64,000 nucleotides of DNA from Longimicrobiales bacterium (GCA_965238005.1 OZ250165.1:864001-928000), one strand, 5' to 3'. Positions 6,688 through 29,033 are shown, numbered from the stretch's first letter. Notes: generated by a model not told the origin, from the sequence alone. A program made the numbers and translations.

Positions 6688-8205
6688 ATGCTGAGGCCGG
6701 CGACGCTCGTCCTCATGGGCCTCGCTTCGGCGGCCGCGATCGCCCACGCCTTCCGGGCGCCGTTCCCCGGACCCGGCGGCAACCCCGTGCTGGACTTGAT
6801 CGCCTACCACGATCCGGGCTTCCACACGGTGATCCGCGTCTGGTACTACGTGGCGCCCGCCGTCGCCGTGGTGCTCTTCGGCAGCCTCGGCCTCTCGGTC
6901 TGGAGAGTCTGGCTCCAGCCACGAGCGGGAGGAGGGCGCCGGGGCACGTTGCCACCCTGGCCCGCCTCGCCCGAGGACGAGACACCATCGCTGGTGATCG
7001 GCGAGCTCCACCATCCCGTCGTCCCGCGCGAGAGCGAGCGGCCGTCCTGGCTCGTCGTTCCCGAGACGGGGCTCTACACCGGCGTGCTCATCGTCGGGGC
7101 GGTCGGCTCCGGCAAGACCTCGGCCTGCATGTATCCGTTCGCCCAGCAGCTCCTCTCGTGGCAGGCCGACCGCCCCGCACGCCGGGCCAGCGCCTTGGTG
7201 CTCGAGGTCAAGGGCGACTTCTGCCACAGCGTGCGGGGGATCCTCGAGGAGGCCGGCCGCGTGGACGACTACCTGGAAATCGGGCTGGACGGGTCCTGGC
7301 AGTGGAACCCGCTCGACGATCCGCTGCTCGACACTTACTCGCTCGCCTACAGCGTCTCATCCCTGATCAACCAGCTCTTCGGCAAGAGCCGCGAGCCATT
7401 CTGGCAGCAAGCCTATACGAATCTCGTGCGCTGGATCGTCGAACTGCACCGGCTCCTGCCGGGGGGCTGGGTCACGCTGCAGGACGTCTACCGCTGCACG
7501 ATCGACGCGGAGCTGTTCGCGCAAAAGATCCGCGCGGCCCGGGACCTGGTGGCTGAGGCGTGCCCGGCGCGCGTCGTCATCTCCCACGACGACATGATCG
7601 GCCATCCGGAAGCGCTGAATGACTGGGTCTGGATATATACCTCCGGTGAGGACACGGTGACGTGCCGGCTCGACCCGGTCCTCCGGGATCGGCTCGCCGA
7701 GCTCGAGATCCCGTTCGAGACCGAGGAAGGCGAGAGCGGCGCAGGCAGCGAACTCAGGGAGCAGGTGGAGGCGATCGAGCGCTGGTACCTGAATGACTGG
7801 ATGGCGCTCGATGCCAAGCTCCGCACCTCGATCGTCGAGGGCATCTCCGTCTTCCTCTCGCTCTTCGACCAGCCGCAGGTCGCGAGCGTGTTCTGTCCGC
7901 CGCCGCCGGAATCGGATGAGTCCCCATCTATACATATAGGTACCGATGCGCCCGACGAGGATGCGGCGGCCGTCCGGCCCATGCCGGGCCTCCGCCGCCG
8001 GCTGCCGCCGCTCGCCGAGTTGATCGAGGGCGGCAAGGTCCTCGCGCTCAACATGCCCGCGGGCGCGAACCCGGCGCTCGGACGCGCGATCGGCGTGCTG
8101 CTCAAGAACGCCTGGATGCAGGCGCTGCTGCGGCGGCCCGCCGAGGCCGCCCGCCGGCCCGGCCGCTACCTCCGGCCCGCCGTGTTCATCTGCGACGAGT
8201 ACCAG
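6688..8205 (+). pseudogene. virD4: VirD4/TraD-like coupling protein, N-terminal part (interrupted by an integrated element)
   Basis: N-terminal TMs, Walker A GAVGSGKT, LEVKGD, WNPL, FWQQA; homology stops at Walker B FICDEYQ. Confidence 0.88.
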
Positions 8206-8266
8206 TCCGACAAGAAAAATATCATAACGCTATATGTAATAATTAGTTATGATGCCGTCGCTTGCC

Positions 8267-8292
8267 CGCGATCACCCCTGCAATCACCCTTT
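8267..8292 (+). promoter_or_regulatory. Putative integrase arm-type sites (left att)
   Basis: CGCGATCACCCCTgcaATCACCCTTT, matching 12243-12268. Confidence 0.7.
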
Positions 8293-8575
8293 GCGCGGCG
8301 GGTAGCGGAATCCCATGGAGCAGCCCCGTTCGCCGTTCAGTCGTTCGGCCGTCCCGTGGGACCCGGCGTCGTCCCATAGCGACTCCCGGCAACTCAAGTT
8401 CGACAGCGGCCGCATCTCGGGGATGAGACACGCCTCTCAAAATGGCCGGCCCGCAGGGCGGCTGTCCAGTGAAGCAACCGGCAACCCGAAAGCCGCGACC
8501 ACATCGCGCGTCCCTGCAAGTTATCATGATGAGCGACGGGACCCTGGCCACACTTCGGGCGAGGAGAAGGGGATT

Positions 8576-8908
8576 ATGACCAAGGCAGACCTGGTCGAGC
8601 AGGTCGCCGATGCGGTTGGACCGCGAGTCACCAAGAGGGACTGCGGGCTGGTGGTCGACGCCTTCCTCGACGCTGTGAAGGACGCGCTTGCGCACGGGGA
8701 GGGCATCGAGCTCCGGGGCTTCGGCACCTTCAAGGTGCGGCACCGCAAGGGCCGCAAGGCCCGCAACCCCAGGACCGGCAAACCTGTGGAGGTCCCGCCC
8801 CGCGCGGTGCCCGTCTTCCAACCGTCGAGACACCTCCGCAGGCAGGTGGACCGAGGCCACAGCTCGTCCGTCACGGGGGAGCCCTTGGAGGCCGTTGGCA
8901 AGCCGTAG
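8576..8908 (+). CDS. HU/IHF-family DNA-binding protein
   Basis: MTKADLVEQVA..IELRGFGTFKVRHRKGRKARNPRTGKPVEVP..PVFQPS. Confidence 0.95.
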   Translation: MTKADLVEQVADAVGPRVTKRDCGLVVDAFLDAVKDALAHGEGIELRGFGTFKVRHRKGRKARNPRTGKPVEVPPRAVPVFQPSRHLRRQVDRGHSSSVTGEPLEAVGKP

Positions 8909-9509
8909 CCTGCCCGCCACGACCGCGTCGCTGGCCGTGGGTGGAAGGGCTGGCTCACGCCCCTTAAGGTGCGTAAGCCAGCCCACGCAGTGTTTAACAC
9001 TGCGGCCTGGCAAGGGGGCGCTACGCCCCCCCTTAGACCCCCCGGCTTCCCGTCCCGCTGCCGGAGCGGCGGGCGGCGGGGTGCGACGCCCCCCGAACCC
9101 CGTCGCCGGTGCTGCGGCTGAGCGCTGCCCCGTCGTGGCCGACGATCCGGCCGACGTGATCCTCAACGGACCCGCAGCCGGGAACTTGGTCGTGACCGGC
9201 AAGGGCGTGAGGTTCCGCCCGTGGGGGAGTCCCGGCCGACGGGGTGGCGACCGCCGGGGCGACCGGCCCCGAGTCCCACCGAGCCCGGAACACCGCTCAC
9301 ACGGGGATTCCGGGCGTTCCGGGGCCGGTTGGGCGGAATCCGAGGCCGTAGGATCGCCTGTGACGCGCGAACTCGACACCCGGAGGGGTATCCCCCGGTT
9401 TCCCGACCGCCCTTCGCAGCCCCTTTGCTCGAATCACAGCAAAGAGGTTCTGCCCTGGGACGTTTCGGCTGCTCTTCAACGCACTGGTCGCGCGGCGTAG
9501 ATTGCTATC

Positions 9510-10325
9510 ATGATTAAGCTTACCGACATCTGGCCAGTCGAGAACCCGCACGATTACAAGGTGCATTTCGCGACTCGGAACAAAGATCGCACTGAGCCGC
9601 TTCTCGTCCTGGCACGCGACGCCGATGAATGGAAACGGTGGCAGGAATACCGCCCGAAAACGGACCAATTCAACCGGAAGTTCATCTTCTCGCTCGCGCG
9701 TGTCTACGACGAGGAGGACAGTTGGTTGTTTGGCGGGGTCTTCCGAGTCATTGAGCGCCTGCCCGAACGATACCAGGTTGAACTGACCGAACAAGGTGGA
9801 CCATTCGTTCGTCGCCTGAAGCTTCGCTCGCCCTATCGCGGCCGGGCGCGACGCGTGAACATGGAGGGGAGACTTGACGAGTTCGAGGTACAGGAAATCC
9901 TCCCCGAGCGCTATTCGGGCCTTCCATTCCCGGGCTTCGAGAGCATCGACCTAGCGTTCAGCGAGTTCGAGGTCCTCCACCGCAACAACCGCCCGGACTG
10001 GCAGGCGGCTTTGGAGAGCGTCAGTGGCGTTTACTTGATTACCGCGCGTACCCGAAGCGCGGTCCGTCAATACGTTGGCGCTGCCTACGGGGAACAGGGC
10101 ATCTGGTCGCGGTGGGTTGATTACCTGAAAACCGGTCACGGCGGAAACGCCGCGCTTCGAGAGCTTATTGGAAACGGGGGGTTACGTTACTGTCGCCGGC
10201 ACTTCCGGTTTGCTCTCCTCGAACACATGTCCCGGAATACGCTGGACGGGTCGATTCAGGACCGCGAGGCGCACTGGAAGAGAATCCTCGGAACCCGGGA
10301 CCGAGGAGGACTCAACCGGAACTAG
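9510..10325 (+). CDS. GIY-YIG nuclease family protein (COG3410-like)
   Basis: SGVYLIT..QYVGAAYG..IWSRW..GHGGN..REAHWK..GLNRN. Confidence 0.85.
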   Translation: MIKLTDIWPVENPHDYKVHFATRNKDRTEPLLVLARDADEWKRWQEYRPKTDQFNRKFIFSLARVYDEEDSWLFGGVFRVIERLPERYQVELTEQGGPFVRRLKLRSPYRGRARRVNMEGRLDEFEVQEILPERYSGLPFPGFESIDLAFSEFEVLHRNNRPDWQAALESVSGVYLITARTRSAVRQYVGAAYGEQGIWSRWVDYLKTGHGGNAALRELIGNGGLRYCRRHFRFALLEHMSRNTLDGSIQDREAHWKRILGTRDRGGLNRN

Positions 10326-11062
10326 CACTAGCGCTAGGCCAACCACATGAGGTCCCAGCATGCGGGTGCGCCTTCTCGAGACCCCAGCCTCCTGCGCCGC
10401 TGGACGCCGCGCCCGAACCCGCCGCCGGTGTGCTCGTGGCGGAGCGGCACCACCCCGGCCCGCTCCCGGCGCGATGCCGACGCACCATGCCACCGGTTGG
10501 AGGCATGGTGTCGGTCGCCCGGATCCCGAATTGCCGCGTCGAGGCGGGAGCCGGGCGACAGCCCGTGGACTTGCGCCGGAGCGCGGACCTGTCGGGGGTC
10601 GAAGGGGCGGAGCCCCTCGCCAGCCCTTGCCGGGGACCCGCGAAGCGTGGCCCCAAGGGGTATGCTGGCTTAGCCACATTAGAGTGGCTCAAGCCAGCCC
10701 TGCGGACGCCTCCGAAACGCGCTCCGAGCAGCCACCCGGAACAGCGGGCGAAGGGCCAACTCTTGCCCGCCAGATCGGCCGCCCGGTCGTTCATGAGCCG
10801 GTCGCTCCGAGGACCGAGAGCGGGGGCGGTAACGACGACGGCGGCGACTACGATGATCGGCGGGGAGCCCACCAGGCGCTCGTTCACGACGGCGGCGCTC
10901 TCTGCCGCGTGGCCGCGTTCCGCCCTACCGTAACCCCTCGGCGACCGGCGATCGTGCGTCAGAGGCGATCCTACGGCCCGCAGCTTTCCGGAAATGCCCG
11001 TGGAACGCCCCGGAAACGGCCTCTGAGCCCGTCGCGGAACCGGCGGCACAACAGGGGGGTGG

Positions 11063-12229
11063 TTAGGCTTCGGTGCTCGCTCTCCGCCCCGCCAGATACT
11101 CCGCCCACTGCTCCATCAGGACGCGGCGGCGCTCGAACAGGTCCGAGCGGGCGTAGGCGGCCTCCACCCTGTTGCGGACCGCGTGCGCCAGCGCCGCCTC
11201 CATAACCGCGTGCGGCGCGTCGGTGCGCTCCGCCGCCCAATCGCGGAAGCTCGAACGGAAGCCGTGCGGCACGGTCGCGATCCCGAGCGCCTTGAGAAGC
11301 CCGGCGAACTCGAAACTCGACAGCACCAGCCCCCGCGCCGACGGGAACACCCACTCCGAACGAGGCGCGTACGCCTTCGCCTCGGCCAAGATCTCCCTCG
11401 CTCGCGCCGACAGCGGCACCCGGTGCTCGCGCCGGCTCTTCATCCGCTCCGCCGGAATCGTCCACTCCCCGGCCTCCATGTCGATCTCCTCCCACCGCGT
11501 CCCACGCACCTCGCCCGACCGGCAGGCCGTCAGCACGAGGAACTCGATGCCCAGCTTCACCGCGACCCTCGCCTCGGCCCGCCGCACGGCCTCGACCGCC
11601 GCGGCCACCTCCCCGTAGGGCAGCGCCTTGTAGTGCTTCTGGATGCGAGGGGGTTTCGGCAACGCCGCCCCGATCGCATCGCCCGCCGGGTTGTCCACGC
11701 GGTAGCCCTGCGCGATCGCCCACCTCATCACCGTCGAAATCCGCTGACGGACCCGCTTGGCCGTCTGGTGCTTCTCGTTCCAGATCGGAAGCAACACGCC
11801 CATCACATCGGCCGATGAAATCCGGTCCACCCGCTTCCGCCCGACCCCCGGAAACGCGTACATGTGTAGCGTTGACATCCACTGGCCCGCGTGCCTGTCG
11901 GTCCAGGTCGGACGGTGCATCGCGAACACCTTGGCGGCCGCCTGCTCGAACGTCGGCACCGAGCGACGGGGTGTTGCCCTGGGGTCCCCGCCCGCTCTGG
12001 CCACCTTGCGGTTGGCCAGCGCGGCGTCGCGGGCCTCGGCCAGCGTCACGAGGCGGACGGGACCGAGCCCCAATTCTCTGCGCTTGCCGTGGACGAACAG
12101 GCGCTGGATCCACTGCTTGTAGCCGGACGGCTTGACCCGGAGCACGAGGCCGTGCTCGTCCCAGTAGAGGCCCGGCTGCCGGACGCTCCGCACGAAGGCG
12201 GCTGTGAGTTTCTTGCCGTGTCTGCCCAT
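11063..12229 (-). CDS. P4-like tyrosine integrase with N-terminal arm-binding domain
   Basis: GKRRELGLG..TLAEAR arm domain; catalytic TACRSGE, MK, HGFRSSF, LAH, AY. Confidence 0.95.
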   Translation of the reverse strand: MGRHGKKLTAAFVRSVRQPGLYWDEHGLVLRVKPSGYKQWIQRLFVHGKRRELGLGPVRLVTLAEARDAALANRKVARAGGDPRATPRRSVPTFEQAAAKVFAMHRPTWTDRHAGQWMSTLHMYAFPGVGRKRVDRISSADVMGVLLPIWNEKHQTAKRVRQRISTVMRWAIAQGYRVDNPAGDAIGAALPKPPRIQKHYKALPYGEVAAAVEAVRRAEARVAVKLGIEFLVLTACRSGEVRGTRWEEIDMEAGEWTIPAERMKSRREHRVPLSARAREILAEAKAYAPRSEWVFPSARGLVLSSFEFAGLLKALGIATVPHGFRSSFRDWAAERTDAPHAVMEAALAHAVRNRVEAAYARSDLFERRRVLMEQWAEYLAGRRASTEA

Positions 12230-12232
12230 CTG

Positions 12233-12268
12233 GTCACCCTTTCGCGATCACCCCTCTGATCACCCTTT
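12233..12268 (+). promoter_or_regulatory. Putative integrase arm-type sites (right att)
   Basis: Three RTCACCCYT units directly upstream of the integrase start codon. Confidence 0.7.
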
Positions 12269-12384
12269 CGGTGCTGGAACACACCGAACGCTCTGACACG
12301 GCAGTATAATATAAGTAGTTTTATAACAACAACTTCACTTGCTCTACGGGATTGCCTTAAACCTATCTGGACGGTGTGCAGAAG

Positions 12385-12921
12385 GAGTACCAGGCGTTCG
12401 CCACCGTGGGCCAGGACGACCCCGCTGGCGACGAGAAGGCCTTCGCGCTGACGCGGCAGTGCCGCTGCATCCCGATCGTCGCCACGCAGTCGATCTCCTC
12501 GCTCCGCTCCGTTCTGTCCGGCACGGACGCCTGGCGCACACTGGTCCAGACGCTCCGCACCCGGATCTTCCTGTCCTTGAGCGACGAGTCCTCGGCCAGG
12601 ATCGCGTCGGAGATGTGCGGCAGCGTCATGAAGACGCAGCCCTCCTACACGTTCACCGAGACCACGGGCCGGCCGGAGTTCTCGCTCCTGTCGGGACGCG
12701 CCGGAGGCGGACGGGGCACGATCGGCGCGAGCAAGTCGTTCCGGCAGGCGCGGGAGCCGGTCTTCACGCCCCGGGACTTCAGCCTCCTCGCCAACTATCA
12801 GGCGATCTGCCTGCCCTACGATGGCACGAAGTCCCTGCCGGCCCGGCGCGTCTACCTGAAGCCCCACTACCTGCCGAGGGGCACGGGTTACTGGCGGTTC
12901 CGCGAGGAGGGCCGGCTGTGA
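12385..12921 (+). pseudogene. virD4: VirD4/TraD-like coupling protein, C-terminal part
   Basis: EYQAFATVG..RQCRCIPIVATQSISSL..RTRIFLSLSD continues the N-terminal half in frame after excision. Confidence 0.88.
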
Positions 12922-13901
12922 AGCGCGCGAGCGGGATCGCGCACCTGCGACCGTTCCTGCCGGGCCTCGAGGCCGTGCTCGAGGATCCGGAGGTCTCCGA
13001 GCTCATGATCAACGGGCCGGGGAACGTCTGGGTCGAACGCGGCGGCGAGCTCGAGCCCATCGAGGCGCCGGCTCTCACCGCCGCCGCGCTCTACCGGGCG
13101 GCGATCCACATTGCGCGGCCGCTCGGGCTCGATCCCGCCGCCCGGCCCGTCCTCGACGCCCGGCTCGACGACGGCTCGAGGGTCGCCATATGCACGCCGC
13201 CCGCGAGCCCCCACGTGGCGATGACGATCCGCCGGTTCGGGGGCCGTGCGTTCTCCGCCGAGGACCTCGTCGGCCAGGGGGCTCTCCCCGAGACGGTGTT
13301 CCGGGCCGCCCGCGACGCCCTCCATTCCCGGCGCAACATCCTGGTCTCGGGAGGCACCGGCTCGGGCAAGACCACACTGCTGAACGCCCTGATCGAGCTG
13401 CTCCCCGAGGAGGAGCGGATCGTCGCCATCGAGGACACGCTCGAGCTCAGGATCGACCGGACCAACTGCCTGCGCTTCGAGGCCGGAGCCGCCGGCCTCG
13501 ACTCACCCGTGTCGATCCGCGACCTGGTCCGCCATGCGCTCCGCCACCGGCCCGACCACATCGTCGTCGGCGAGGTCAGGGGCGGCGAGGCCGCCGATCT
13601 GCTGCAGGCGCTGAACACCGGCCACGGCGGATCGCTCACCACCGTGCACGCGAACAACGCCCGCTCCGCGCTGTCGCGACTGGCGAGCTGCGCCATGCAG
13701 GCCGGAGGCGCCCTCCCCTGGGAGGTCACCTGCCGAGGCGTGGTCGACGGCATCCATCTGGTCGTCCACATGACCCGTCGAGGGGGCCGACGCTTCGTCG
13801 AGGAAGCGCTCCGTGTGAAGGGCTACGAGGCGGCCGCCAACCGCTGGCTCACCGAGACGATATGGAGGAAGGACGATGAAGAACAAACAGAAAAGGAGTG
13901 A
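12918..13901 (+). CDS. virB11: VirB11/CpaF-family secretion ATPase
   Basis: ELMINGP, GGTGSGKTT, IEDTLEL, LRHRPDHIVVGEVRG, NTGHGGSLTTVHA; GTGA coupling to virD4. Confidence 0.92.
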   Translation: MKRASGIAHLRPFLPGLEAVLEDPEVSELMINGPGNVWVERGGELEPIEAPALTAAALYRAAIHIARPLGLDPAARPVLDARLDDGSRVAICTPPASPHVAMTIRRFGGRAFSAEDLVGQGALPETVFRAARDALHSRRNILVSGGTGSGKTTLLNALIELLPEEERIVAIEDTLELRIDRTNCLRFEAGAAGLDSPVSIRDLVRHALRHRPDHIVVGEVRGGEAADLLQALNTGHGGSLTTVHANNARSALSRLASCAMQAGGALPWEVTCRGVVDGIHLVVHMTRRGGRRFVEEALRVKGYEAAANRWLTETIWRKDDEEQTEKE

Positions 13902-13905
13902 GGAC

Positions 13906-14109
13906 ATGGAAAGCGACGAGAAGATCGTCCGCGTCGAGACGCTCGACGACTTCGACCGCGAGCTCGCGCGCGACGGGGGCGAGGCCCTCGAGGTGCCAGC
14001 ATCGCTGGCCGAGCAGTACGGCCTCTTCCCCGAGGACGTGGGCACCGAAGACGAGATCCGGGACGCCTCGGAGGATCCGCACGGCCGGGAGGAGGAGGAG
14101 GACCGATGA
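13906..14109 (+). CDS. Small acidic hypothetical protein
   Basis: RBS (GAGGA) plus ATG; stop overlaps the ardC start (ATGA). Confidence 0.55.
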   Translation: MESDEKIVRVETLDDFDRELARDGGEALEVPASLAEQYGLFPEDVGTEDEIRDASEDPHGREEEEDR

Positions 14110-15134
14110 AACACGACGAATACCACCGCCAGTTCGCCGATGCGATCATCGAGCAGATCCGCCAGGGCACGGCACCGTGGCAGAAGCCCTGGGGGCCGGG
14201 CGAGCGTGTGCTCCCCGCTAACGTCGATACCGGACGCTCCTACGCGGGAGGCAACAGCCTGCACCTTGCCGCCGTCCAGCAGGAGCGCGGCTACGGCGAC
14301 GTGCGCTGGGGAACCTACCGCCAGATCCAGGCCCGGGGCGGACAGGTGCGGAAGGGCGAGCAGGGCACCCGCATCCTCTCATTCCAGGACCACCGGAGGA
14401 TCGCCGTCACCGACGAGCGCGGCCGGCCCGTCAGGGACAACGAAGGCAAGCGCGTCTACCGCCACGAGCGGATGCGCGCGCCCGTCGTCCGGCAGTACAC
14501 CGTCTTCAACGCAGAGCAGGCGGACGGGCTCCCGGCCCGGCCCGCGCCCGCTGCCGAGCCGCTCTGGAAGGCCCACCAGGAGGCCGAACGCGTCCTCGCG
14601 GACAGCGGCGTCCCCGTCCGTCACGTGGCGGGGGACCGGGCGTACTACAACCTGAACCGCGACGAGATCGTGCTGCCCGAGCGGGCACAGTTCCCCTCTG
14701 CCAATCACTACTACCAGACCGCGCTCCACGAGCTGGGGCACAGCACGGGCCACCCGGAGCGGATGAACCGCGCCACCCTCGTCGAGGGGATGAGCGAAGG
14801 GTTCGGCTCGCCGGCCTACGCGAAGGAGGAGCTCCGCGCCGAGATCAGCGCCATGATGACGGGCGAGCGGGTCGGCGTGGGCCACGACCCGAGCCGGGGC
14901 GCCGCCTACGTCGAGGGCTGGGTCGCCGCCCTCAAGGAGGACCCCCGCGAGATCCGCCGCGCCGCGGCCGACGCACAGAAGATCTCCGACTTCGTGCTCG
15001 CCCGAAGCCGTGAGCGCGAGCCCGAGCGCGAGCCGGCGCCCGTGGCGGCCACCCGCGCGCCCGCCCGGGAGCCCGCCGTCCGGCCGGAGCTTCCGCTGCC
15101 GCTACCGAACCGGAGCTTCGGCCCGCGCCGCTGA
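14106..15134 (+). CDS. ardC: ArdC-like ssDNA-binding antirestriction protein with zincin domain
   Basis: PWQKPW, YAGGN, WGTYRQ..GGQVRKGE, YTVFNAEQ, HELGH, YAKEELRAE. Confidence 0.92.
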   Translation: MKHDEYHRQFADAIIEQIRQGTAPWQKPWGPGERVLPANVDTGRSYAGGNSLHLAAVQQERGYGDVRWGTYRQIQARGGQVRKGEQGTRILSFQDHRRIAVTDERGRPVRDNEGKRVYRHERMRAPVVRQYTVFNAEQADGLPARPAPAAEPLWKAHQEAERVLADSGVPVRHVAGDRAYYNLNRDEIVLPERAQFPSANHYYQTALHELGHSTGHPERMNRATLVEGMSEGFGSPAYAKEELRAEISAMMTGERVGVGHDPSRGAAYVEGWVAALKEDPREIRRAAADAQKISDFVLARSREREPEREPAPVAATRAPAREPAVRPELPLPLPNRSFGPRR

Positions 15135-15152
15135 CGCCCAAGGAGGGACAAC

Positions 15153-16034
15153 ATGATGGACCGAACGATCGAATCGGACCCGCGCCCCGCCGCGCCACAA
15201 AGCCGCACTCACTACCGCATGCGGGACGGCCATCGCCGAGAATACGACGCGCGCGAGGGCGCCGGGTCCATCTCCTTCCGCGAACGGTGCCGTGGGGCGC
15301 TCGCCGACATCGGCATCTACGGCGCCGTCTCCGTCCGCGATCTCGCCGAGGCTCACTTCGGCGGCCATCCCTACACCACCCGGCGGGCCGTGAACGCCTG
15401 GACCCGCGAAGGGCTCGCCCAAGAAACCCGAGCCACTGGACCCAACGGCAACCCGTTCAAGGTTCTGACGCTCACACGGAGCGGCGTCGCCGCCACACGT
15501 GAGCTGGCCTCCGCGCGAGGGCTGGATCCCGGCCAGGAGATCGGTATCGCTCGCCTCCAACGCTCCCAGCTCGCACACGACACCGCGATCTACAGGGCCT
15601 GCGGGCTCGAACGCCAACGCCTGCTCGAGCGGGGCGCCCGGGTCCGGCGTGTCCGCTTGGACGGCGAGCTCAAGAGCACCGTCGCGCGCAAGAGCGAGGC
15701 CGCAAGGGCGAGAGACGGCCGGCGGGCCGCAGACGCCGAACGGCACCGCGCCGCCCAAGAACTGGACCTGCCTATCGACGCCCGGGGACGCGTGCTCTAC
15801 CCCGATGCACAGATCGAATACACCGACTCCGACGGGCGGAGCGGCCGCGTCAACATCGAGGTCGCCTCCGGCAACTACCGCCAGGGAGCGGTCCGGGCCA
15901 AGGCCGCCGCCGGGTTCCGGATGCACGCCAACGGACCGGCCGGGAGACGGGTCCTCCGAATCCTCGGGCCGGGCAGCGATCGTAGCTCCCTGCGTGGCCC
16001 GGCGGAGCACGACCCCGCGGCGCTCGAGCTCTAA
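15153..16034 (+). CDS. wHTH plus PD-(D/E)XK-like protein (replication-relaxation-like, tentative)
   Basis: wHTH-like N-terminal half, LAHD, YPDAQIEY..VNIEV..Y..K. Confidence 0.6.
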   Translation: MMDRTIESDPRPAAPQSRTHYRMRDGHRREYDAREGAGSISFRERCRGALADIGIYGAVSVRDLAEAHFGGHPYTTRRAVNAWTREGLAQETRATGPNGNPFKVLTLTRSGVAATRELASARGLDPGQEIGIARLQRSQLAHDTAIYRACGLERQRLLERGARVRRVRLDGELKSTVARKSEAARARDGRRAADAERHRAAQELDLPIDARGRVLYPDAQIEYTDSDGRSGRVNIEVASGNYRQGAVRAKAAAGFRMHANGPAGRRVLRILGPGSDRSSLRGPAEHDPAALEL

Positions 16035-16043
16035 GGACCTCGC

Positions 16044-16358
16044 GTGCAACCCTGGAAGATCAGCGTAGGGCTCAGCGCTGCCCTTGCCGGCTCGGTCGTC
16101 CTCCTAGCCGGATCCCGCCTCGAGTACCTCGCGCCGTTCTGGCCGCTGATCCTCGCCGACTATGGCGCCGTCGTGGTCATGCACCTGGGGTTGGCGCTAG
16201 CGGCGGTCCTGGCTTCCCTCTACGCCGTCGCGCGCGCCGCCGGGCTCTCCGACCTGGGGCGCCGCGTCGATCTCGTCGAACGCTCCGTTCGGCGCGGCGA
16301 AGGCGATCCCGCACTCGCCGACGCGCTCCGCAGGGATGCGGAGGGCGAGTGGGACTGA
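16044..16358 (+). CDS. Hypothetical membrane protein
   Basis: Two hydrophobic segments; RBS AAGGA. Confidence 0.55.
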   Translation: MQPWKISVGLSAALAGSVVLLAGSRLEYLAPFWPLILADYGAVVVMHLGLALAAVLASLYAVARAAGLSDLGRRVDLVERSVRRGEGDPALADALRRDAEGEWD

Positions 16359-16925
16359 GCCCAGACCCTTGCCGGGGCTGGACGCGTCCCCGGAAGACGC
16401 ACTCCCGATGTGGAGCTGGTGAGCCTCGAACTACGACTGGTGAAATGGATCGTCGGTGCCGCGCTGGCCGGCGCCGCCCTCGTCATCGCGGCCGTATGGC
16501 TCTTCGGCGGCCAGCCTTACATCCCCGTTTTTGGGGCTTAGGAGCCGTCCCAAGAAGGCTTAGCAGCTTCTGGGCGCCTAGAAGCCGTTTACCCCCCCGG
16601 ATCCGTCTCCAGGTCCTCGACGTCGGCCTGCTCCGCGCCGCCCTCGCCCTCCTGGAAGCCGAACTCGGCCGCGATGGACCAGCTGCAAGCGACCGGCAGC
16701 CCCAAGTCGCCGGTCGCGTCCAGCGTCGCGCCGAGGTCGGCCGATCGCCAAATCAAGACCACAGGCTCGCCGCCGAGCATCGTGATCGTCACGTCTCCTC
16801 CTCCTGGGCCATTCGGCAGGGTTGACCTCATCCGGGAATCGTGACCGTAGGGACCCGTAACCACGGGACACAGCGGCCGATATAGCCGGTGGAGGCCCGT
16901 CCGGTCTGGCCCGCCCGGGATCCAC

Positions 16926-17090
16926 CTACGCCTCGTGGGGGTCGGGCATGCGGTAGCCGACGCCGTGCTCGTTGAAGATGTAGGCGGGAGTGGAGGCGGT
17001 GTCGCCGAGCTTGCGGCGGAGCCTCCTGACCGCGGTTCGCACGCGGTCGGCGTCGCCGGACTCGCGCCTGCCCCACACCTGACGGAGCAG
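16926..17090 (-). pseudogene. C-terminal winged-helix fragment of an OmpR/KdpE-type regulator
   Basis: Manual translation LLRQVWG..RVRTAVRRLRRKLGDTASTPAYIFNEHGVGYRMP*; receiver domain absent. Confidence 0.8.
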
Positions 17091-17197
17091 GCCTCGGCGA
17101 ACCCGTTCCTCCGCCGGACTGCCGGGGACTGGGGGATAGCGCCGTCCGGGCCGCCTGTCACGACCATGACATGCGAGTTTTTCGCATTGTCACGGTA

Positions 17198-17226
17198 TTG
17201 GTCACTAAAACCGCGTAGATTAGAGT
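17198..17226 (+). promoter_or_regulatory. Candidate sigma70 promoter abutting the left lox-like site
   Basis: TTGGTC-N17-TAGAGT. Confidence 0.35.
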
Positions 17227-17260
17227 CAAGCTCCCGATAGTTGTAACTATCGGGAGCAAC
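17227..17260. other. lox-like recombination site (left)
   Basis: CAAGCTCCCGATA-GTTGTAAC-TATCGGGAGCAAC, 13-8-13; outer 3 nt of the right arm degenerate. Confidence 0.88.
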
Positions 17261-17308
17261 GCCGCATGGAAAGTGTGACGAAGCGGCTGCACGTCAACCC
17301 TTCGGCGC

Positions 17309-18295
17309 TCACTTGCGCTTCTGCAGCCGTGCGAGCTGCGCGGCGCCGTTCCGCTGCGCGAGAAGCCGCTCGCCGTAGCGCTGCACCATCGAGGCGCTCT
17401 TCCAGCGTCCGGCCTGCATGATTGCGGGGATCCCGATCCCCGAGGCGATCATGTCCTGGGCCGCGCCCACGCGCGGGCTGTGCCCGGAGATCCGCCGCAC
17501 CATGTCGGAAGGCAGGCCCGCGCGCTCGGCCATCGCGCGGTAGATGCGGGGCACCTGGCTTGCGTCGAGCGCCTCGCCCAAGGCGCCGTCCTTCGTGACC
17601 GAACGGAACAGCCTGCCCGAGGCGATGCCGCTCCGGTCGAGCCACGCCCGCACCAGCTTCACGGTGTCGCGGTGGAGGTAGAGCGTCGCGCCGCCGCCGC
17701 CGGAATCGGTCTTGCCGCACCGCACGAGGAGCGAGGCCGATCCTCCCCTATCCACGGTCATGTCAACGACTTGCAGCGCGACCAGCTCGGATCGCCGGAG
17801 CATCGCGTCGTAGGCGACGGCGAGGAGGGCGCGGTTCCGCAGGTCGATTGGCCGGTCGCCCGCGGCCGCGATCAGGCGCCGCCGGAGCCTCCAGGTCAGC
17901 CCCTGTACCTGCCTCTGCCGAGACCCATTCCTTCGGCGCATGCGCTGGAGCGCCCGCTGCACGGCGGCGTGCTCGAGCGGGCTTTGCTCCCCGGCCGCCC
18001 TGTGCGCCACGGTGAGGCTGAAGACGTAGCGGCGCACGGTGGCCGGGGCCCGGCCACCGGCCATCGCATCGACGTACGCCGCCACCGTCTCCGCTCGCGC
18101 GGGCAGCGGCGAGAGGTCCCGCTCGGCGCACCACGACGCGAACGCGTCCAGATCCGCCCTGAGCGCCCGGACGGTATGGCCGCTGAGGGCACCCCGGGCG
18201 TCATCGAGGCAGGCATCGAGGCGTTCTCCGGTTTGTGACAATGTGATGGCACGGTCTGAAGGACCTGACACGCGTCCCGGACCCGTAATCCGCAT
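17309..18295 (-). CDS. Cre-like tyrosine recombinase
   Basis: RNRALLAVAYDAMLRRSEL, GKTD, SGHSPRVGAAQDM, IPAIMQAGRW, MVQRY (R-K-H-R-W-Y set as in Cre); ATG after GGAGG. Confidence 0.93.
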   Translation of the reverse strand: MRITGPGRVSGPSDRAITLSQTGERLDACLDDARGALSGHTVRALRADLDAFASWCAERDLSPLPARAETVAAYVDAMAGGRAPATVRRYVFSLTVAHRAAGEQSPLEHAAVQRALQRMRRRNGSRQRQVQGLTWRLRRRLIAAAGDRPIDLRNRALLAVAYDAMLRRSELVALQVVDMTVDRGGSASLLVRCGKTDSGGGGATLYLHRDTVKLVRAWLDRSGIASGRLFRSVTKDGALGEALDASQVPRIYRAMAERAGLPSDMVRRISGHSPRVGAAQDMIASGIGIPAIMQAGRWKSASMVQRYGERLLAQRNGAAQLARLQKRK

Positions 18296-18330
18296 AAACA
18301 CCTCCGCAACAACAACATACGTGAATTCAG

Positions 18331-18364
18331 CAAGCTCCCGATAGTTACAACTATCGGGAGCTTG
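18331..18364. other. lox-like recombination site (right), inverted relative to the left site
   Basis: CAAGCTCCCGATA-GTTACAAC-TATCGGGAGCTTG; perfect arms; spacer is the reverse complement of the left spacer. Confidence 0.9.
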
Positions 18365-18389
18365 AAAACCCTGTCGCGAAAGGTTTGGG

Positions 18390-21300
18390 ATGTCGGAGGA
18401 AACGTGCTGGTCTGGTCAGCCGCGGGCAGAAGGTGGCGGAATCACTGGTCTCCGGCGCCAAATCGCGCGCCAGCCGGGACTTCTTGTGGGCGCCGGGCTG
18501 GTGTTTGCGCGTACCGCGTCCGCGACATGGCGGGGATTGCTCGTCGCGTCGCTCCTCGCCCCCGCTGCGGTGGCTTCCGCCCGCCCCGCCTCCGCACAAG
18601 CCGAGATCGAACTCCTGAGTGCGACGCTCACGCCGGCACAACAGCCGCCGCTGACGCTCACCGACGGTAGGATCCAGACCTTCATCGGCTGCCAGCAAGC
18701 TGTGTCCGAGCGCCGATGCAGCACCCACATGACGGACCACGACTTCACCGAAGAGGCCGTCAACTACATTGTCAAGACCTTAGTGTATGTACGCGAGGAA
18801 AGCGCTGAAAATGTCGCCCCAGCTATCTCGATAGTTTTCAATCCGGGGTTGTCGACCCGTCTCCAGACGATGACGCTGCAGGTCGGGGATTCTGCCTTGG
18901 CTTTCCCGGCGGCACGTGGATCCTACGATGGCAACAGCTTCTCTGATCGGACCTGGGATATTGGGTTCGAATGGACCGAAGGAACCCCCGTATCGATCCG
19001 GCTGACGCGTCCGAACGTCGCCCCCACGGCGGTCGACGGTGGAGTCGGGACGTACCTGAACGAGGCGTACACGTTCGAGGCGTCGGATTTCGGGTTTTCG
19101 GACGTGGACGAGGAGCACGGCCAGAGCCTTCAGAACGTGAGGATCGTGGCGCTCCCCGCCTCGGGGACGGTGATGCTCGGAGGCACGGCGGTGACGGCCG
19201 GCGAGTCGGTGGCGAAGGGGGACCTCGACGCCGGACGGCTCACGTACACCCAGCCCGGCACCGACCCGGAGGATGCGAGCTTCACCTTCAAGGTGAGCGA
19301 CGGCACGGCGGAGAGCGATGGGCCGTACACGATGGACATCGAGGTGCGTTCCCCGGCGCCGGGGCCGCCGGAGAACCTGACCGCCGCCGCAGGCGACGGC
19401 GCGGCTACCCTTGGCTGGGAGGCACCGGCGAACAGCGGCGCCTCGGCGATCGTCCGCTACGAAGTCCGCCATGCGGCGGCCAACTCGGTGCCGATGAACA
19501 CGGCCTGGCAGTCCGTCGGGCTGACTTTGAGCCACTCGATCACCGGGCTGACGAACGGGCAGGTCTACACGTTTGAGGTGCGCGCGGTGAACGGCTCCAA
19601 CCCGGCCGAAGGCCCTGCGGCGGAGGTGCGGGCCACGCCAGCACCAGTCGTCTCCATCACCCCCGGTTTCCTGTCCGTTGCCGAAGATGCCGGCGAGGCC
19701 GTGCTGACGGTTTCGCTGCACCGGCCCGCCGAGTCCGCGCTGTCGGTTTCCTGGCATACGCAGGATGAACGCGCGGACGCGCCGAACGACTACACGGCCC
19801 GGCAGGATGCGGTGACTTTCGCCGCCGGTGAAGACCGGAAGACCGTTTCCGTGCCCATCGTGGACGACGCGGTGCGGGAGGACCCGGTCCATGACGTACA
19901 CGAGACGTTCTTCGTCATCCTCGAGGCAGGCCAGGGCTACAGCCGGAGCGACAGCTCGTACGCCCTCGTGGAGATCGTCGACAACGACGGAGACGCCGCG
20001 CCGGACGTGACGCCGCCGCGGCTCCTCCAAAGGACGGTGAACGGCACCACGCTGGTGCTTACCTACGACGAGACGCTCGACGACGCGTCGGTCCCGGCCC
20101 CGGGCGACTTCGTCGTTGCGGCGGCTGGGAACACAATCAACGTGACCCAAGTGAGCGTCGACGGATCGAGAGTGACGCTGACGCTGGCCGTCCCCGTCCA
20201 GCCCAGCCAGGCGGTGTCGATCGACTACACGCCGGGGGCGACCCCGATCCAGGACGCGTCGGGCAACGACGCGGGTCCGATCTCGGGCATGGACGTACGG
20301 CCGCCGCAGCTCACCCGGGCGACGGTGAACGCAAGCAGGCTGGTCCTGACCTACGACGAGACGCTTGACGGCGCGTCGATCCCGGCCCCGGGCGACTTCG
20401 TCGTGACGGCGGCGGGGAGCACGGTCGGAGTGAACGGTGTGAGCGTGGGCGGCTCGGCGGTGACGCTGACGCTGGCCACCGCCGTCCAGGCGAACCAGGC
20501 GGTGACGCTCGACTACACGCCGGGCGCGAGCCCGACCCAGGACGTGGCGGGCAACGACGCGGCGGCGCTCTCCGGGCAGGCCGTGACCAACAACACTCCG
20601 GGAAGCGGTGAAGGCAGCGGCGGTGGTACTGGTGATCCCTCGGTGCCGGGCGCACCTGCGTCCCTGACGGCGACGGCGGGGGACGAAGAGGTGGCGCTCG
20701 TCTGGAGCGCGCCCGCGGACGATGGCGGCGCACCCGTCACCGGCTACGAGTACCGCTACACGGTGGGAGACGCGGTGCCCGGGGATACGCCGTGGCAGTC
20801 CGCCGGGCTCAACCTCGAGTGGACGGTGACCGGCCTGACCAATGGCCAGCAGTATGCCTTCGAGGTGCGGGCGCTGAGCCGCGTGGGCGAGGGTGCAGCA
20901 CGGGGAGCCCTGGCCACGCCGGTTGGGCGGCTGGGCGTGCCCGCATCCCTGACGGCGACGGCGGGCGACGAAGAGGTGGAGCTGGCCTGGAGCGCGCCCG
21001 CGGACGATGGCGGCGCGCCCGTCACCGGCTACGAGTACCGCTACGCGGCGGGAGCTGCGGTGCCCGAGGATACGCCGTGGCAGTCCGCCGGGCTCAACTT
21101 CGAGTGGACGGTGACCGGCCTGACCAATGGCCAACGATACGCCTTCGAGGTGCGGGCGCGGAACCGCGTGGGCGAAGGCGAGGCGCGGGGAGCCCTGGCC
21201 ACGCCGGTGGGGCGGCCGGGCGTGCTAGCATCCCTGACGGCGACGGCGGGCGATGGAGAGGTGGCGCTCGTCTGGAGTGCGCCCGCGGACGATGGCGGCG

Positions 21301-23705
21301 CACCCGTCACCGGCTACGAGTATCGCTACGCGGCGGGAGACGCGGTGCCCGGGGAGACGGCCTGGCAGGAGCCGGACGGCGACCGGGCGGCGACGGTCAC
21401 GGAGCTGGAGAACGAGACGCGCTACGCCTTCGAGGTGCGGGCGCGAAACCGCGTGGGCGAAGGCGAAGCGGCGAAGACGACGGCCCTGCCGCTTCGGCTG
21501 CGGGCGGAGTTGTTCAGCGCGTCGTCGGCGGCGGAAGGCGAGGCGCTCGTGATCGGGGTGCGCCGGAGCGGGGGGCTCGCGGTTCCGGCCCACGCCTACA
21601 TCGGCGTGACGGACAGCGCGCTGCCCGGCGTGACCGCGACGGACGAGGGGCGCGACGACGGGCTCGGCCGCCACCGGCTGGAGTTCGCAGCTGGCGCGGC
21701 CGAGGCGACGGTCGCGGTCACTATCGCCTTCGACGGCGAGCTCCGACAGGACCGTGCCTTGACCGCGACGCTCGATTCCGCGGAAACGGAGGTCGACGGC
21801 GTAACGCGGGCCCATGAACTCGTCACCCCGACGCTGGTTGTTCCGGTGACGGAGGGGGACGCCGGGGTGTCGGTGGCCGATGCCCGAGTGCAGGGAGGGA
21901 GCGTGGTGCTGGCGTTCACGGTGAGCATGGACCGCACGCGGGACGCGGCTGTGCGGGTGGACTACGCCACGGAAGACGGTTCGGCCAGGGCCGGCGAGGA
22001 CTACACTCCGGTCACGGGGACACTGACGATCGCCCCCGGCGGGCGCGAGGGCACGGTGGAGGTGCCGGTGCTTCCGGCCCTGCACGTGACGGGCGAACGG
22101 ACGCTGACCCTGAAGCTGTCGAATGCCACCAACGCGGTGATCGACGACGCGTCGGCGACGGGCACGATCGTTCGCGAATCGGAGCTGCCCAAGGCTTGGC
22201 TGGCGCGGTTCGGGCGGACGGCCTCGGACCACGCGGCCCAGGCGATCGCGACGCGGCTCGAGGCCGGCCGGCGGGAGACACAGGTGACGGTGGCCGGCCG
22301 GCGTGTGGACGGGCTGTCGGTGGGCGGCCTGGTGTTGGGGGCGCTACCGTCGGGCGGATGGAGGCCGGCTTCGGCTGTTGAGGACATGGCGACCAGGCTG
22401 GCGGCGCCCGCTCTGGCGGCTTCAGGCGCATCGGGCGCGGGTCCGGGTGTACCGGGTGTGTCACCCGGCGCCTGGGGCGGGGCTCCGGGCACGTTGGACC
22501 GGGAGTCCTCCGTAGATGCCGGGCAGGCGTTGCGCCGGGCCGTGCTTCCCGACTTCGGGTCCCGCCTGCCGGGGGCGGAGGAAGCGCTCCTGGGCAGCTC
22601 ATTCTACGTCGAAGGCGGAGCACAAGCCGCCGAGGGCGGCGGCACGTGGGCCGCATGGGGCGACGTGGCTGCGACCCGTTTCGAGGGCGATGCGAACGGG
22701 CTTGCGCTCGACGGCGACGTGGTGACGGGCACGCTAGGCCTGGACCGGCAGTGGCGGGCACTCCTGGTCGGGATCGCGCTCTCGAGGAGCAGCGGGGAGG
22801 GCGCCTACGGTCCGGGCGCGGGGACGATCGCGAGCACGCTGACGAGCGTCCACCCGTACGCGCAAGTACGGCTCGCGGACCGCGCGCAGCTGTGGGGCGC
22901 GGCGGGCTGGGGCCGGGGCGGGCTCGAGATCACGCCGGAGAGGGGGACCGCGCTCGAGGCGGATCTCACGAACAGGATGGGGGCACTCGGCGGGCGGGCA
23001 GTGCTCGCGGGCGCCGGTGCGCTCGAGATCGCGCTCCGCTCCGACCTGCTCTGGACGGAGACGTCCTCCGACGAGACCACTGGGCTGGCGGAGGCCGTGG
23101 GCACGGCGAGCCGCGGGCGGCTGATGCTCGAGGGCGCGGGCCGGATCCGGGGGCTCGGTGGCGTCGTGCGGCCCAGGATCGAAGGCGGCGTCCGCTACGA
23201 CGGCGGGGACGCGGAGACCGGACGAGGGTTCGAGGTGGGCGGCGGGCTCGGCTGGGCCCGGGGATCGCTCATGCTCGAGGCGAGCGGGAGAGTGCTCGTC
23301 GCCCACGCCGACGAGTCCTACGAGGAGTGGGGCTACAGCGGCTCGCTCGTCTACGCGCCGGGCGCCGACGGCCTCGGTCTCCAGATGCGGGTCGGATCCA
23401 CAGCGGGGGCGGCGGCGATGGGCGTCCGTAGCCTGTGGGCTGCAGAGAACGCGAGCGGCCTGGTGCGCCCGGGCCACGGCGGGATGCCCCTCGCGCAACG
23501 GTTCGACGCCGAGGTCGGCTACGGGCTCGGGGGCGGAGCACTGTGGTACCCGTACTTCGTCGCCGACGACTCCGGGCTGACGAGGTTCGGCCTCGAGCTC
23601 ACCTCGGCAGACGTGCTCGGCGTCGGCCTCGAGTTCGGGCGAAGGGAGGGTGTGGACCTTGGGCCGGAGGACACCATGCTCCTCCGGGGGGAGCTCAGGT
23701 TCTAG
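18390..23705 (+). CDS. Large surface adhesin/autotransporter-like protein (cadherin-like, 4 Fn3, 2 Calx-beta, 2 SwmB-type repeats, C-terminal beta-barrel); exact start uncertain
   Basis: Signal-like LLVASLLAPAAVASARPASAQ; FTFKVSDG; GLTNGQxYxFEVRA; YATEDGSARAGEDY; LVLTYDETLD; terminal GELRF. Confidence 0.88.
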   Translation: MSEETCWSGQPRAEGGGITGLRRQIARQPGLLVGAGLVFARTASATWRGLLVASLLAPAAVASARPASAQAEIELLSATLTPAQQPPLTLTDGRIQTFIGCQQAVSERRCSTHMTDHDFTEEAVNYIVKTLVYVREESAENVAPAISIVFNPGLSTRLQTMTLQVGDSALAFPAARGSYDGNSFSDRTWDIGFEWTEGTPVSIRLTRPNVAPTAVDGGVGTYLNEAYTFEASDFGFSDVDEEHGQSLQNVRIVALPASGTVMLGGTAVTAGESVAKGDLDAGRLTYTQPGTDPEDASFTFKVSDGTAESDGPYTMDIEVRSPAPGPPENLTAAAGDGAATLGWEAPANSGASAIVRYEVRHAAANSVPMNTAWQSVGLTLSHSITGLTNGQVYTFEVRAVNGSNPAEGPAAEVRATPAPVVSITPGFLSVAEDAGEAVLTVSLHRPAESALSVSWHTQDERADAPNDYTARQDAVTFAAGEDRKTVSVPIVDDAVREDPVHDVHETFFVILEAGQGYSRSDSSYALVEIVDNDGDAAPDVTPPRLLQRTVNGTTLVLTYDETLDDASVPAPGDFVVAAAGNTINVTQVSVDGSRVTLTLAVPVQPSQAVSIDYTPGATPIQDASGNDAGPISGMDVRPPQLTRATVNASRLVLTYDETLDGASIPAPGDFVVTAAGSTVGVNGVSVGGSAVTLTLATAVQANQAVTLDYTPGASPTQDVAGNDAAALSGQAVTNNTPGSGEGSGGGTGDPSVPGAPASLTATAGDEEVALVWSAPADDGGAPVTGYEYRYTVGDAVPGDTPWQSAGLNLEWTVTGLTNGQQYAFEVRALSRVGEGAARGALATPVGRLGVPASLTATAGDEEVELAWSAPADDGGAPVTGYEYRYAAGAAVPEDTPWQSAGLNFEWTVTGLTNGQRYAFEVRARNRVGEGEARGALATPVGRPGVLASLTATAGDGEVALVWSAPADDGGAPVTGYEYRYAAGDAVPGETAWQEPDGDRAATVTELENETRYAFEVRARNRVGEGEAAKTTALPLRLRAELFSASSAAEGEALVIGVRRSGGLAVPAHAYIGVTDSALPGVTATDEGRDDGLGRHRLEFAAGAAEATVAVTIAFDGELRQDRALTATLDSAETEVDGVTRAHELVTPTLVVPVTEGDAGVSVADARVQGGSVVLAFTVSMDRTRDAAVRVDYATEDGSARAGEDYTPVTGTLTIAPGGREGTVEVPVLPALHVTGERTLTLKLSNATNAVIDDASATGTIVRESELPKAWLARFGRTASDHAAQAIATRLEAGRRETQVTVAGRRVDGLSVGGLVLGALPSGGWRPASAVEDMATRLAAPALAASGASGAGPGVPGVSPGAWGGAPGTLDRESSVDAGQALRRAVLPDFGSRLPGAEEALLGSSFYVEGGAQAAEGGGTWAAWGDVAATRFEGDANGLALDGDVVTGTLGLDRQWRALLVGIALSRSSGEGAYGPGAGTIASTLTSVHPYAQVRLADRAQLWGAAGWGRGGLEITPERGTALEADLTNRMGALGGRAVLAGAGALEIALRSDLLWTETSSDETTGLAEAVGTASRGRLMLEGAGRIRGLGGVVRPRIEGGVRYDGGDAETGRGFEVGGGLGWARGSLMLEASGRVLVAHADESYEEWGYSGSLVYAPGADGLGLQMRVGSTAGAAAMGVRSLWAAENASGLVRPGHGGMPLAQRFDAEVGYGLGGGALWYPYFVADDSGLTRFGLELTSADVLGVGLEFGRREGVDLGPEDTMLLRGELRF
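20640..21490 (+). repeat. Three tandem ~285-bp Fn3-coding repeats
   Basis: Near-identical units ASLTATAGD..WSAPADDGGAPVTGYEYRY with 285-nt period. Confidence 0.85.
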
Positions 23706-27450: not shown

Positions 27451-27633
27451 GGCGGATCGTGTTGTTTCGCCGTCGCGTCTCCCGTTGAAGCTCGAGAGCG
27501 GCCACAAATTGGAGCTGTCCCGTTTCAGTGGACGGGTGAACACTGAGGTTTATAGTCTGTCCCCCTCGCTGGGGAGAGGAAAGCTTCCCCCGCGCAGCGG
27601 GGGAGTAAAGGGCAACTTGGCCACGCAGGTTTC

Positions 27634-28485: not shown

Positions 28486-28796
28486 GAACTCGAACCCCGT
28501 TCCGGGATCGAGTTGCTCTCCCGAGCAAACCAGGCGGCGGCTTTTTTTAGAATCTCCTGCTCCATGCGCAGACGCTTGTTGTCACGCCGAAGCTGCCTGA
28601 GTTCCCCACGCTCCTCCGTCGTCAGCCCGTCACTGCGACGGCCTTCATCCAAGTCAGCTTGTTTGACCCAGTTCCGTATCGCCCCGTTTGAGGGCTCGAA
28701 CTCCCGGGCCAGCTCCTCCACGGAGCGGCCCGACCTGACCAACTCGACCATCTGCCGCCGAAACTCCGGCGGGTACGGCGCATGTGTTCTTGGCAT
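28482..28796 (-). CDS. IS3 transposase OrfA
   Basis: YPPEFRRQMVELV..IRNWVKQ..EILKKAAAWFA. Confidence 0.93.
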   Translation of the reverse strand: MPRTHAPYPPEFRRQMVELVRSGRSVEELAREFEPSNGAIRNWVKQADLDEGRRSDGLTTEERGELRQLRRDNKRLRMEQEILKKAAAWFARESNSIPERGSSS

Positions 28797-29033
28797 CGTG
28801 GACTCCTCCTGTCTCCCTCACTACTGAGGTGTCCACCAAAGCGGGTCAACTCCAAATTGCCGGCTCAGCGAGTGGCGGATCAGGAGCCTCTGAACGTCGT
28901 CTGGCATCGCAGGACGACGCTGATCGTCGCCGACGAGCAGGTCTCGGCCCTCGATGCTCGACGATCGGTATTAGGGCCCGTACGTATACTCACGATCTAA
29001 AGATACGTAACCTCTACAGGGGTCGGCTCTCGA

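Follow-up and report, generated by a model that had tools for sequence, protein, structure and literature searches.

Recombinases of the Cre type are known in nature as enzymes of plasmid and phage resolution and integration, each with a single target site beside its gene. A different arrangement is found in Salmonella, where the Hin segment carries an outward promoter that serves a neighboring surface-structure gene, and Hin itself is a serine invertase that requires an enhancer and Fis. The account of this layout in PMC5903667 places the recombinase gene inside the inverted segment. Tyrosine recombinases also run inversion switches: the UPEC ipuS switch (IpuA-IpuB) is described in PMC6083910 as controlling a regulator and an autotransporter adhesin, ipuR-upaE, and the cmrRST switch of C. 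difficile (RecV) is described as controlling a signal-transduction system. These switches and fimS are promoter elements of 260 to 300 bp with 7- to 9-bp repeats, and their recombinases, which belong to a FimB/XerC-like group rather than the Cre type, lie outside the element or are merely clipped by it. For Cre-type enzymes, PMC10250229 gives a definition by six residues (R-K-H-R-W-Y) and search criteria of a length of 300 to 400 aa and a palindromic 13-8-13-like site near the gene; a supplementary table of that paper holds about 500 predicted recombinase/site pairs. Outside that predicted-pair table, which lay beyond our comparison, a literature search on gene-enclosing Cre-type layouts and on recombinases of Gemmatimonadota symbionts returned nothing relevant.

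We analyzed a stretch of 64,000 nucleotides from a Longimicrobiales bacterium (GCA_965238005.1 OZ250165.1:864001-928000), referred to here as the window. It contains a 1.1-kb segment that is probably a self-contained site-specific inversion cassette flipped by its own Cre-type recombinase. The features of the locus and of the island to its left are as follows, in window coordinates.

932-1048, strand not given: IS3 fragments with an ALIL frameshift pseudoknot (Rfam, 100 bits)
3761-4768, strand not given: TrbL/VirB6, left-hand island
8315-8905, strand not given: HU, left-hand island
11066-12229, strand not given: P4-type integrase with an arm-binding domain, left-hand island
12339-13898, strand not given: VirB11-like ATPase, left-hand island
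14106-15134, strand not given: ArdC, left-hand island
16926..17078, minus strand: regulator remnant, last ~50 codons, Trans_reg_C (Pfam, 1.1e-09)
17134..17226, minus strand: retained leader of the lost regulator gene, with four GTGAC-type boxes and then GCTATCC (17134-17140)
17227..17260, no strand: siteD, the downstream lox-like site, 13-8-13, CAAGCTCCCGATA-GTTGTAAC-TATCGGGAGCAAC; 17226-17257 is one inverted-repeat arm
17261..17308, minus strand: trailer, from stop codon to siteD, with a family-conserved GTCACA (TGTGAC on the plus strand, 17274-17279)
17309..18295, minus strand: Cre-type tyrosine recombinase gene, intact, 328 aa from the ATG at 18295 or 330 aa from a GTG at 18301
18296..18330, minus strand: leader, from siteU to start codon, short (~34 nt in relatives)
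18331..18364, no strand: siteU, the upstream lox-like site, 13-8-13, CAAGCTCCCGATA-GTTACAAC-TATCGGGAGCTTG; 18334-18365 is the partner arm
18390..23705, plus strand: divergent neighbor, a 1771-aa surface protein with FN3, Calx-beta, SWM, and cadherin-like repeats, annotated start 25 nt from siteU

A first-pass annotation of the window had placed two 13-8-13 sites at 17227-17260 and 18331-18364, had described their spacers as exact reverse complements asymmetric only at the central 2 bp, and had stated that they enclose the recombinase gene alone. All three readings held up. A repeat search of the window reported, at the two sites, a 32-nt inverted repeat, 17226-17257 and 18334-18365, that is 100% complementary. 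The 8-bp spacers GTTGTAAC and GTTACAAC are exact reverse complements whose asymmetry is confined to the central GT/AC, and the only ORF with coding-like GC3 between the sites is the recombinase itself (17309-18301, minus strand). The right-hand site, siteU, is a 16-2-16 palindrome and the left-hand site, siteD, a 13-2-13 palindrome, the inner arm deviating only at its three outermost bases. With up to three mismatches allowed, the 28-nt site core matched twice in the window against 0.00 expected from 100 shuffles, and in the whole genome (4,839,169 bases) it was found only at these two places. Both sites are palindromes of the Cre type, with 13- to 15-bp arms around an 8-bp spacer less than 1 kb from the gene; siteU lies 30 nt 5' of the recombinase ATG and siteD 48 nt 3' of the stop codon. 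Their disposition, inverted and bounding a segment with a cognate recombinase at the same locus, is that of an inversion switch. No direct repeat of the kind left by target-site duplication abutted either site, in the window or in the homologous copies inspected directly.

Homologues favor the ATG at 18295 as the recombinase start codon. Pfam identified a Phage_integrase domain (2.2e-18) and a SAM-like N domain in the protein, and the NCBIfam profiles contained no specific model for it, giving only weak Xer matches far under the cut-offs. When we compared it with the PDB by phmmer, residues 34-319 aligned with Cre 32-333 (E 1.3e-31), and the top 17 matches were all to Cre or its Tre derivative (E ~1e-31), with XerD next at 6.6e-07. 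All six Cre-type catalytic positions are present: R169, K197, H274, R277, W300, and Y309, numbered from the GTG, correspond to R173, K201, H289, R292, W315, and Y324 of Cre. The close match to the Cre C-terminal motif claimed in the first-pass annotation is therefore confirmed, and at 328 to 330 aa the protein has both the length of a Cre-type enzyme and similarity to Cre over its full extent. We expect its fold and chemistry to match those of Cre. Given a leader of about 34 nt, any recombinase promoter must presumably overlap the site. The GTCACA motif of the trailer recurs in most copies of the cassette.

The locus resembles Cre/loxP of P1 in its near full-length protein alignment (E 1e-31), in the conserved R-K-H-R-W-Y residues, and in having a 34-bp 13-8-13 site close to the gene. 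The proteins are about 30% identical, and the site is probably unrelated to loxP apart from its geometry. Whereas loxP is a single site beside its gene, the window has two inverted sites enclosing the gene; its spacer is asymmetric only at the central 2 bp; and loci of this type are chromosomal and multicopy, with conserved neighboring genes. Among the characterized sites that we compared, SloxP was the most similar. PMC3082901 prints SloxM1 as CTCGTGTCCGATA ACTGTAAT TATCGGACACGAG, and we located the natural SloxP at NC_008573 260252-260278, on a plasmid of Shewanella sp. ANA-3. The window sites have 19 to 20 of 34 bases in common with it, including the inner arm CCGATA/TATCGG, 5 of the 8 spacer bases, and the TGTAA core, and one relative (L025) matches SloxP at 21 of 34 positions and 7 of 8 spacer bases. 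The other 14 to 15 positions differ from those of the window sites, SloxP is a single site rather than an enclosing pair, and the best recombinase match on its plasmid (264486-265601, about 4.2 kb from SloxP), a candidate SCre, is 30% identical to the window protein. The likeness to SloxP suggested by the first-pass annotation is thus real in the bases and arms but only partial, the proteins being ~30% identical; neither site nor enzyme is near-identical to SCre/SloxP, as a shared specificity would imply. The pair could be orthogonal to known Cre-family tools, as that annotation also proposed. The ANA-3 plasmid carries two more Cre-like genes, near 255.7-256.7 kb (L089) and 204.0-204.9 kb (L090), each having, no more than ~1.3 kb away, a palindrome of 13-8-13-like form around a GATA-N8-TATC core; these palindromes may also be lox-like sites.

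The layout shares with Hin/hix a recombinase gene inside an inverted segment of about 1 kb. It differs in pairing lox-like sites with a tyrosine recombinase of the Cre type, and in the promoter proposed below for the cassette family, of which one part lies in the segment and the other in the crossover site. Like ipuS, fimS, and cmrRST, the cassette would be a tyrosine-recombinase inversion switch, and in its logic it resembles ipuS, which drives a regulator and an autotransporter. The locus falls in the class of Cre-type recombinases with a lox-like site; its enclosing inverted pair would act as an inversion switch.

We searched genome contigs for homologues and obtained 79 loci. Those at 61 to 84% protein identity came nearly all from metagenome-assembled genomes (MAGs) titled Longimicrobiales or Candidatus Palauibacter, often with several copies per contig (up to 8 or more), and a few came from MAGs titled Vicinamibacterales, Latescibacterota, and Rariloculaceae. 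An order-wide search detected the recombinase in 12 of 201 genomes, in one family and in 5 of 80 genera. In metagenome contigs, an exact scan with a degenerate site motif gave 0 matches, and a protein scan gave 76 loci with only two close relatives (L093 and L094). We then compared the 350 nt 5' of the gene with the 350 nt 3' of it, without reference to any motif, for inverted repeats of 18 nt or longer; this covered the 88 of 155 loci, from genome and metagenome contigs together, that had a full gene and sufficient flank. At ≥61% identity such a repeat enclosed the gene at 43 of 49 loci, and at ≤55% at none of 39. The six misses are accounted for by IS insertions that displace a site (L006, L047, and L048), by diverged sites (L011 and L022), and by a replaced flank (L015). 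By this comparison the enclosed-recombinase architecture is a family trait, of what appears to be a previously undescribed family.

The sites of the family lie ~55 to 66 nt ahead of the start codon and 45 to 78 nt past the stop, the latter spacing being found for the siteD equivalent in 43 of 49 close homologues. Most copies retain perfect inverted repeats of 30 to 38 nt. Across the 43 loci with both sites we counted 10 arm variants and ~15 spacer variants (one row, L022, is misregistered). The paired spacers within a locus are identical in 28 of the 43 and differ by a base or two in 15, the misregistered L022 included, so some copies may be locked. The genome of the window (G000) has two further copies, at 1-1007 and 815167-816290, both with one shared spacer, ACTGTAGT, unlike the GTTGTAAC of the window. 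The G000 contig (G000:C1:1-2600; also 813500-820000) begins inside one of these further recombinase copies, at residue ~315, and joining the contig ends does not restore the gene. The cassettes of that copy and of the other, which is frameshifted, are 99.4% identical and lie in opposite orientations relative to regulator fragments that are 98.6% identical.

The orientation of the cassette relative to its neighbors proved to be variable. We examined 82 sequences, among which 46 loci had regulator evidence; L007 is nearly identical to L008, and the two may not count as independent. In the common state (43 loci), the regulator gene lies past the 3' end of the recombinase gene and is codirectional with it. 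In the rare state (3 loci: G000 copy 1, L006, and L016), the regulator gene lies beside the 5' end and is reversed. The window's own genome has copies in both states. Comparison of L006 with G000 809-822 kb, which holds that genome's second copy (815-816 kb), revealed an exact inversion of the cassette. On either side of it the two loci are collinear, at 98.6% over the regulator flank and at 92 to 97.4% over the surface-protein flank, whereas the segment between the sites is reversed at 96.6 to 98.9%, and the alignment ends overlap inside both sites. When L016 and L020 were compared in gene orientation, the cassettes were collinear (92%), the upstream flank of L016 matched the reversed downstream flank of L020 (96.6% and 97.9%), and the downstream flank of L016 matched the reversed upstream flank of L020 (88.4%). 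The recombinases of these two lineages are just 78% identical and their sites differ, which points to two independent inversion events. At the inverted loci a large codirectional ORF lies downstream, as a simple flip predicts.

For family members, therefore, both orientations occur between the same flanks. The first-pass annotation had held that homologues should carry flanking palindromes and should not all share one orientation; the motif-free search (43 of 49 loci at ≥61% identity) and the orientation survey (43 versus 3 loci, with L006 against the G000 copy and L016 against L020) agree with it on both points. Its further claim that the 1.07-kb segment flips is supported for the relatives by two clean inversions and is only plausible for the partly decayed window copy itself. 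The window copy is represented in seven public runs (Logan contigs), of which X2, X3, X5, and X6 were mapped, with contig ends or starts at 17255/17228 and 18363/18336. The mapped k=31 contigs list no strand-changing joint and speak for neither orientation, since an inverted repeat of 32 nt exceeds the word length of the assembly. We infer that the encoded enzyme performs the flip and that switching is frequent, as in phase variation; given the heavy 43:3 skew, the inversions may instead be rare evolutionary events rather than programmed switching.

Members of the family sit in a conserved setting. By BLAST, the usual conserved unit begins exactly at the upstream site and runs ~2.5 kb downstream (3936 to ~7600 in L007); copies are alike well past the sites. 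The gene downstream of the cassette in L007 encodes a 781-aa fusion, GAF-PAS-HisKA-HATPase-REC-Trans_reg_C (winged helix-turn-helix), that is, a sensor kinase/response regulator. In the window this gene has undergone an internal deletion of ~2.3 kb with its joint near 17095-17100, L007 5097-7426 having no window counterpart, and everything except the leader and the last ~50 codons has been lost. The four GTGAC boxes of the leader, at 17200-17205, 17188-17193, 17167-17172, and 17156-17161, are spaced 11/21/11 bp on the gene strand, and the block of boxes plus GCTATCC adjoined siteD in 20 of 20 loci inspected. This four-box leader looks like an OmpR-type autoregulated promoter, which the window would have kept. 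The GTGA(C) boxes and the related GTCACA motif ~13 nt inside the cassette may bind a response regulator, and such binding could affect recombination.

On the other side, homologous large repeat proteins occupy the place of the 1771-aa surface protein at other loci (LRR plus FN3 in L007). As annotated, these ORFs start only 25 to 36 nt away from the upstream site, a gap that could hardly hold a separate promoter, although later in-frame starts are possible. The sequences past the regulator stop codon fall into several unrelated classes, and no third site or half-site was found at the far end of the regulator gene. A pair of genes encoding 293 and 104 aa (15153-16358 in the window) recurs past the regulator gene at at least 10 other loci. 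The window cassette is one partly decayed member of a multicopy three-gene module comprising surface protein, cassette, and sensor-regulator; its regulator has been deleted and its promoter motif is degenerate, with the recombinase and sites intact.

A consensus scan of L007 3600-5500 gave one sigma-70-like site, TTGCCG-18-TACAAT at 5028-5057, which reads outward (0.1 expected). Its −35 element lies in the trailer and its −10 element in the spacer of the downstream site. The trailer supplies the −35 hexamer TTGCCG of such an outward promoter-like site in many relatives; the window has ATGCGG. As the paired sites are copies in inverted orientation, each end of a cassette has this −10 element facing outward, and the −35 element can come only from the trailer. 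The split arrangement, with at least 4/6 matches in both hexamers, was present reading outward at 20 of 45 downstream sites versus 5 of 46 upstream sites, the 20 positive loci not being independent because they belong mostly to one closely related subfamily. The window copy (ATGCGG / TACAAC) fell below the ≥4/6 threshold, and promoter and terminator scans of the window cassette returned 0 and 0.

In the mechanism that we propose, the Cre-type recombinase would bind the pair of lox-like sites at the ends of the segment that encodes it. With the spacers inverted (GT versus AC at the center), recombination would flip the segment, recombinase gene included. Cassettes of the family have a giant surface-protein gene on one side and the gene of a fused sensor kinase/response regulator on the other, and a flip would swap which of these neighbors lies downstream of the cassette 3' end, where many relatives have a predicted outward promoter with its −35 element in the cassette end and its −10 element in the site spacer. 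We infer that the switch controls the surface protein. In a model consistent with this arrangement, the surface protein would be silent in the common orientation and driven in the flipped one. The regulator gene, with an apparent promoter of its own, may be independent of the cassette.

Of the rival readings, the most serious takes the cassette for a relic with no programmed switch. Its sites would be real targets, serving autoregulation (with the recombinase binding where its own promoter lies) or letting copies recombine with one another on occasion, and the inversions would be rare accidents that regulate nothing. The 43:3 skew in orientation fits this reading, as do the unequal paired spacers at 15 of 43 loci, the IS insertions in L006, L047, and L048, the frameshifted or truncated recombinases, and the regulators deleted in the window, L009, L017, L030, L031, and L034. 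L006 is moreover a mosaic suggestive of exchange between copies: its regulator flank is that of one G000 copy (99.8%), its surface-protein flank that of the other (97.4%). We nevertheless consider a relic unlikely. Most copies keep perfect inverted repeats of 30 to 38 nt while arms and spacers diverge between loci, which argues for selection on matched pairs, and two independent clean inversions were found among only ~46 loci. The insertions themselves (L006 2560-3992, L048 1154-4012, and L047 ~5000-7200) are IS sized; they interrupt the recombinase gene within its leader or at its 5' end, or else part it from its downstream site, and appear to be independent knockouts of the switch. The state of the G000 copies and the L006 mosaic suggest intercopy recombination or duplication, or an assembly break at a repeat.

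Two other origins for the enclosed gene seem less probable still. The cassette might be a small mobile element, either a tyrosine-recombinase transposon with terminal inverted repeats or a cassette excisable through its near-symmetric spacer; its multiple copies (up to 8 or more per contig), its patchy distribution (12 of 201 genomes and 5 of 80 genera of the order), the 85 to 88% identical DNA units in MAGs titled Vicinamibacterales and Latescibacterota, and the symmetry of the spacer at all but 2 bp are what such an element would show. A transposon's likeness should be confined between its repeats, in unrelated contexts, yet in the copies compared similarity never ends at the downstream site, and the regulator leader follows in every copy examined. 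Nor was there a target-site duplication in the window or the copies inspected, or, in three genomes queried with the regulator protein, a cassette-free regulator locus with a single site: nine of the ten regulator matches adjoin a cassette, and the tenth (L176) is cut by an IS. What travels is apparently the cassette plus the regulator, not the cassette alone, and we regard an autonomous element as improbable. Very unlikely, in our judgment, is a system for multimer resolution or integration belonging to the adjacent conjugative-element remnant, in the way that Cre/loxP serves P1. The left-hand island does hold TrbL/VirB6, a VirB11-type ATPase, ArdC, and HU, and Cre-like genes are common on plasmids (2573 matching records). 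Such a system should have one site per replicon or directly repeated cores, whereas here two inverted sites hug the gene; the island has a separate P4-type integrase (11066-12229); and the two-site layout is missing from the plasmid-type relatives at ≤55% identity. The candidate role of the Cre-like gene as integrase of that remnant was dropped on the P4-type integrase and the unfit site geometry. The DNA left of the locus is a mosaic of conjugative-element and IS remnants with this integrase of its own, and the mobile-element patchwork spans window positions 1-16400.

A broader version of the inversion-cassette reading is also possible, and we put it forward tentatively. The family would be a horizontally spreading set of self-contained Cre-type switches, in which a split promoter (−35 in the segment, −10 in the crossover spacer) is rebuilt at whichever end faces outward and activates a giant eukaryote-like adhesin or else the side with the linked autoregulated sensor-regulator. 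Uncultured Gemmatimonadota would in this way have, in each genome, several independent loci that vary the cell surface, with cross talk limited by diversified spacers and arms. Cassette-plus-regulator units lie on megabase contigs from other phyla (L027 and L031, from MAGs titled Vicinamibacterales; L037 and L038, Latescibacterota; and L023, L049, and L050). They share 85 to 88% DNA identity with Longimicrobiales copies over ~3.66 kb, and the similarity begins precisely with the upstream site. The unit thus appears to have passed horizontally, and recently, between phyla.

A clade in which the gene lies between two inverted sites, together with comparative evidence of flipping, would give Cre-type enzymes a natural role as inversion switches, and it suggests that very large surface proteins phase-vary in an uncultured phylum. 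Our literature search returned no paper describing phase variation of such surface proteins in Gemmatimonadota. The family also amounts to a large natural set of recombinase/site pairs with codiverged arms and spacers (~15 spacers and 10 arm variants at 43 loci), with two different spacers in the window's own genome alone. Pairs of this kind are raw material for orthogonal genome-engineering tools and for working out rules of specificity, and if the switch-family reading is true, they would already make up a panel of at least a dozen lox/recombinase pairs, all orthogonal to one another.

Two further repeats lie to the right of the locus. Two identical IS3-family copies, 3241 bp apart, occupy window positions 27508-31726, and a 2.4-kb tandem duplication, 97 to 100% identical and containing small ORFs, spans 40587-45029.
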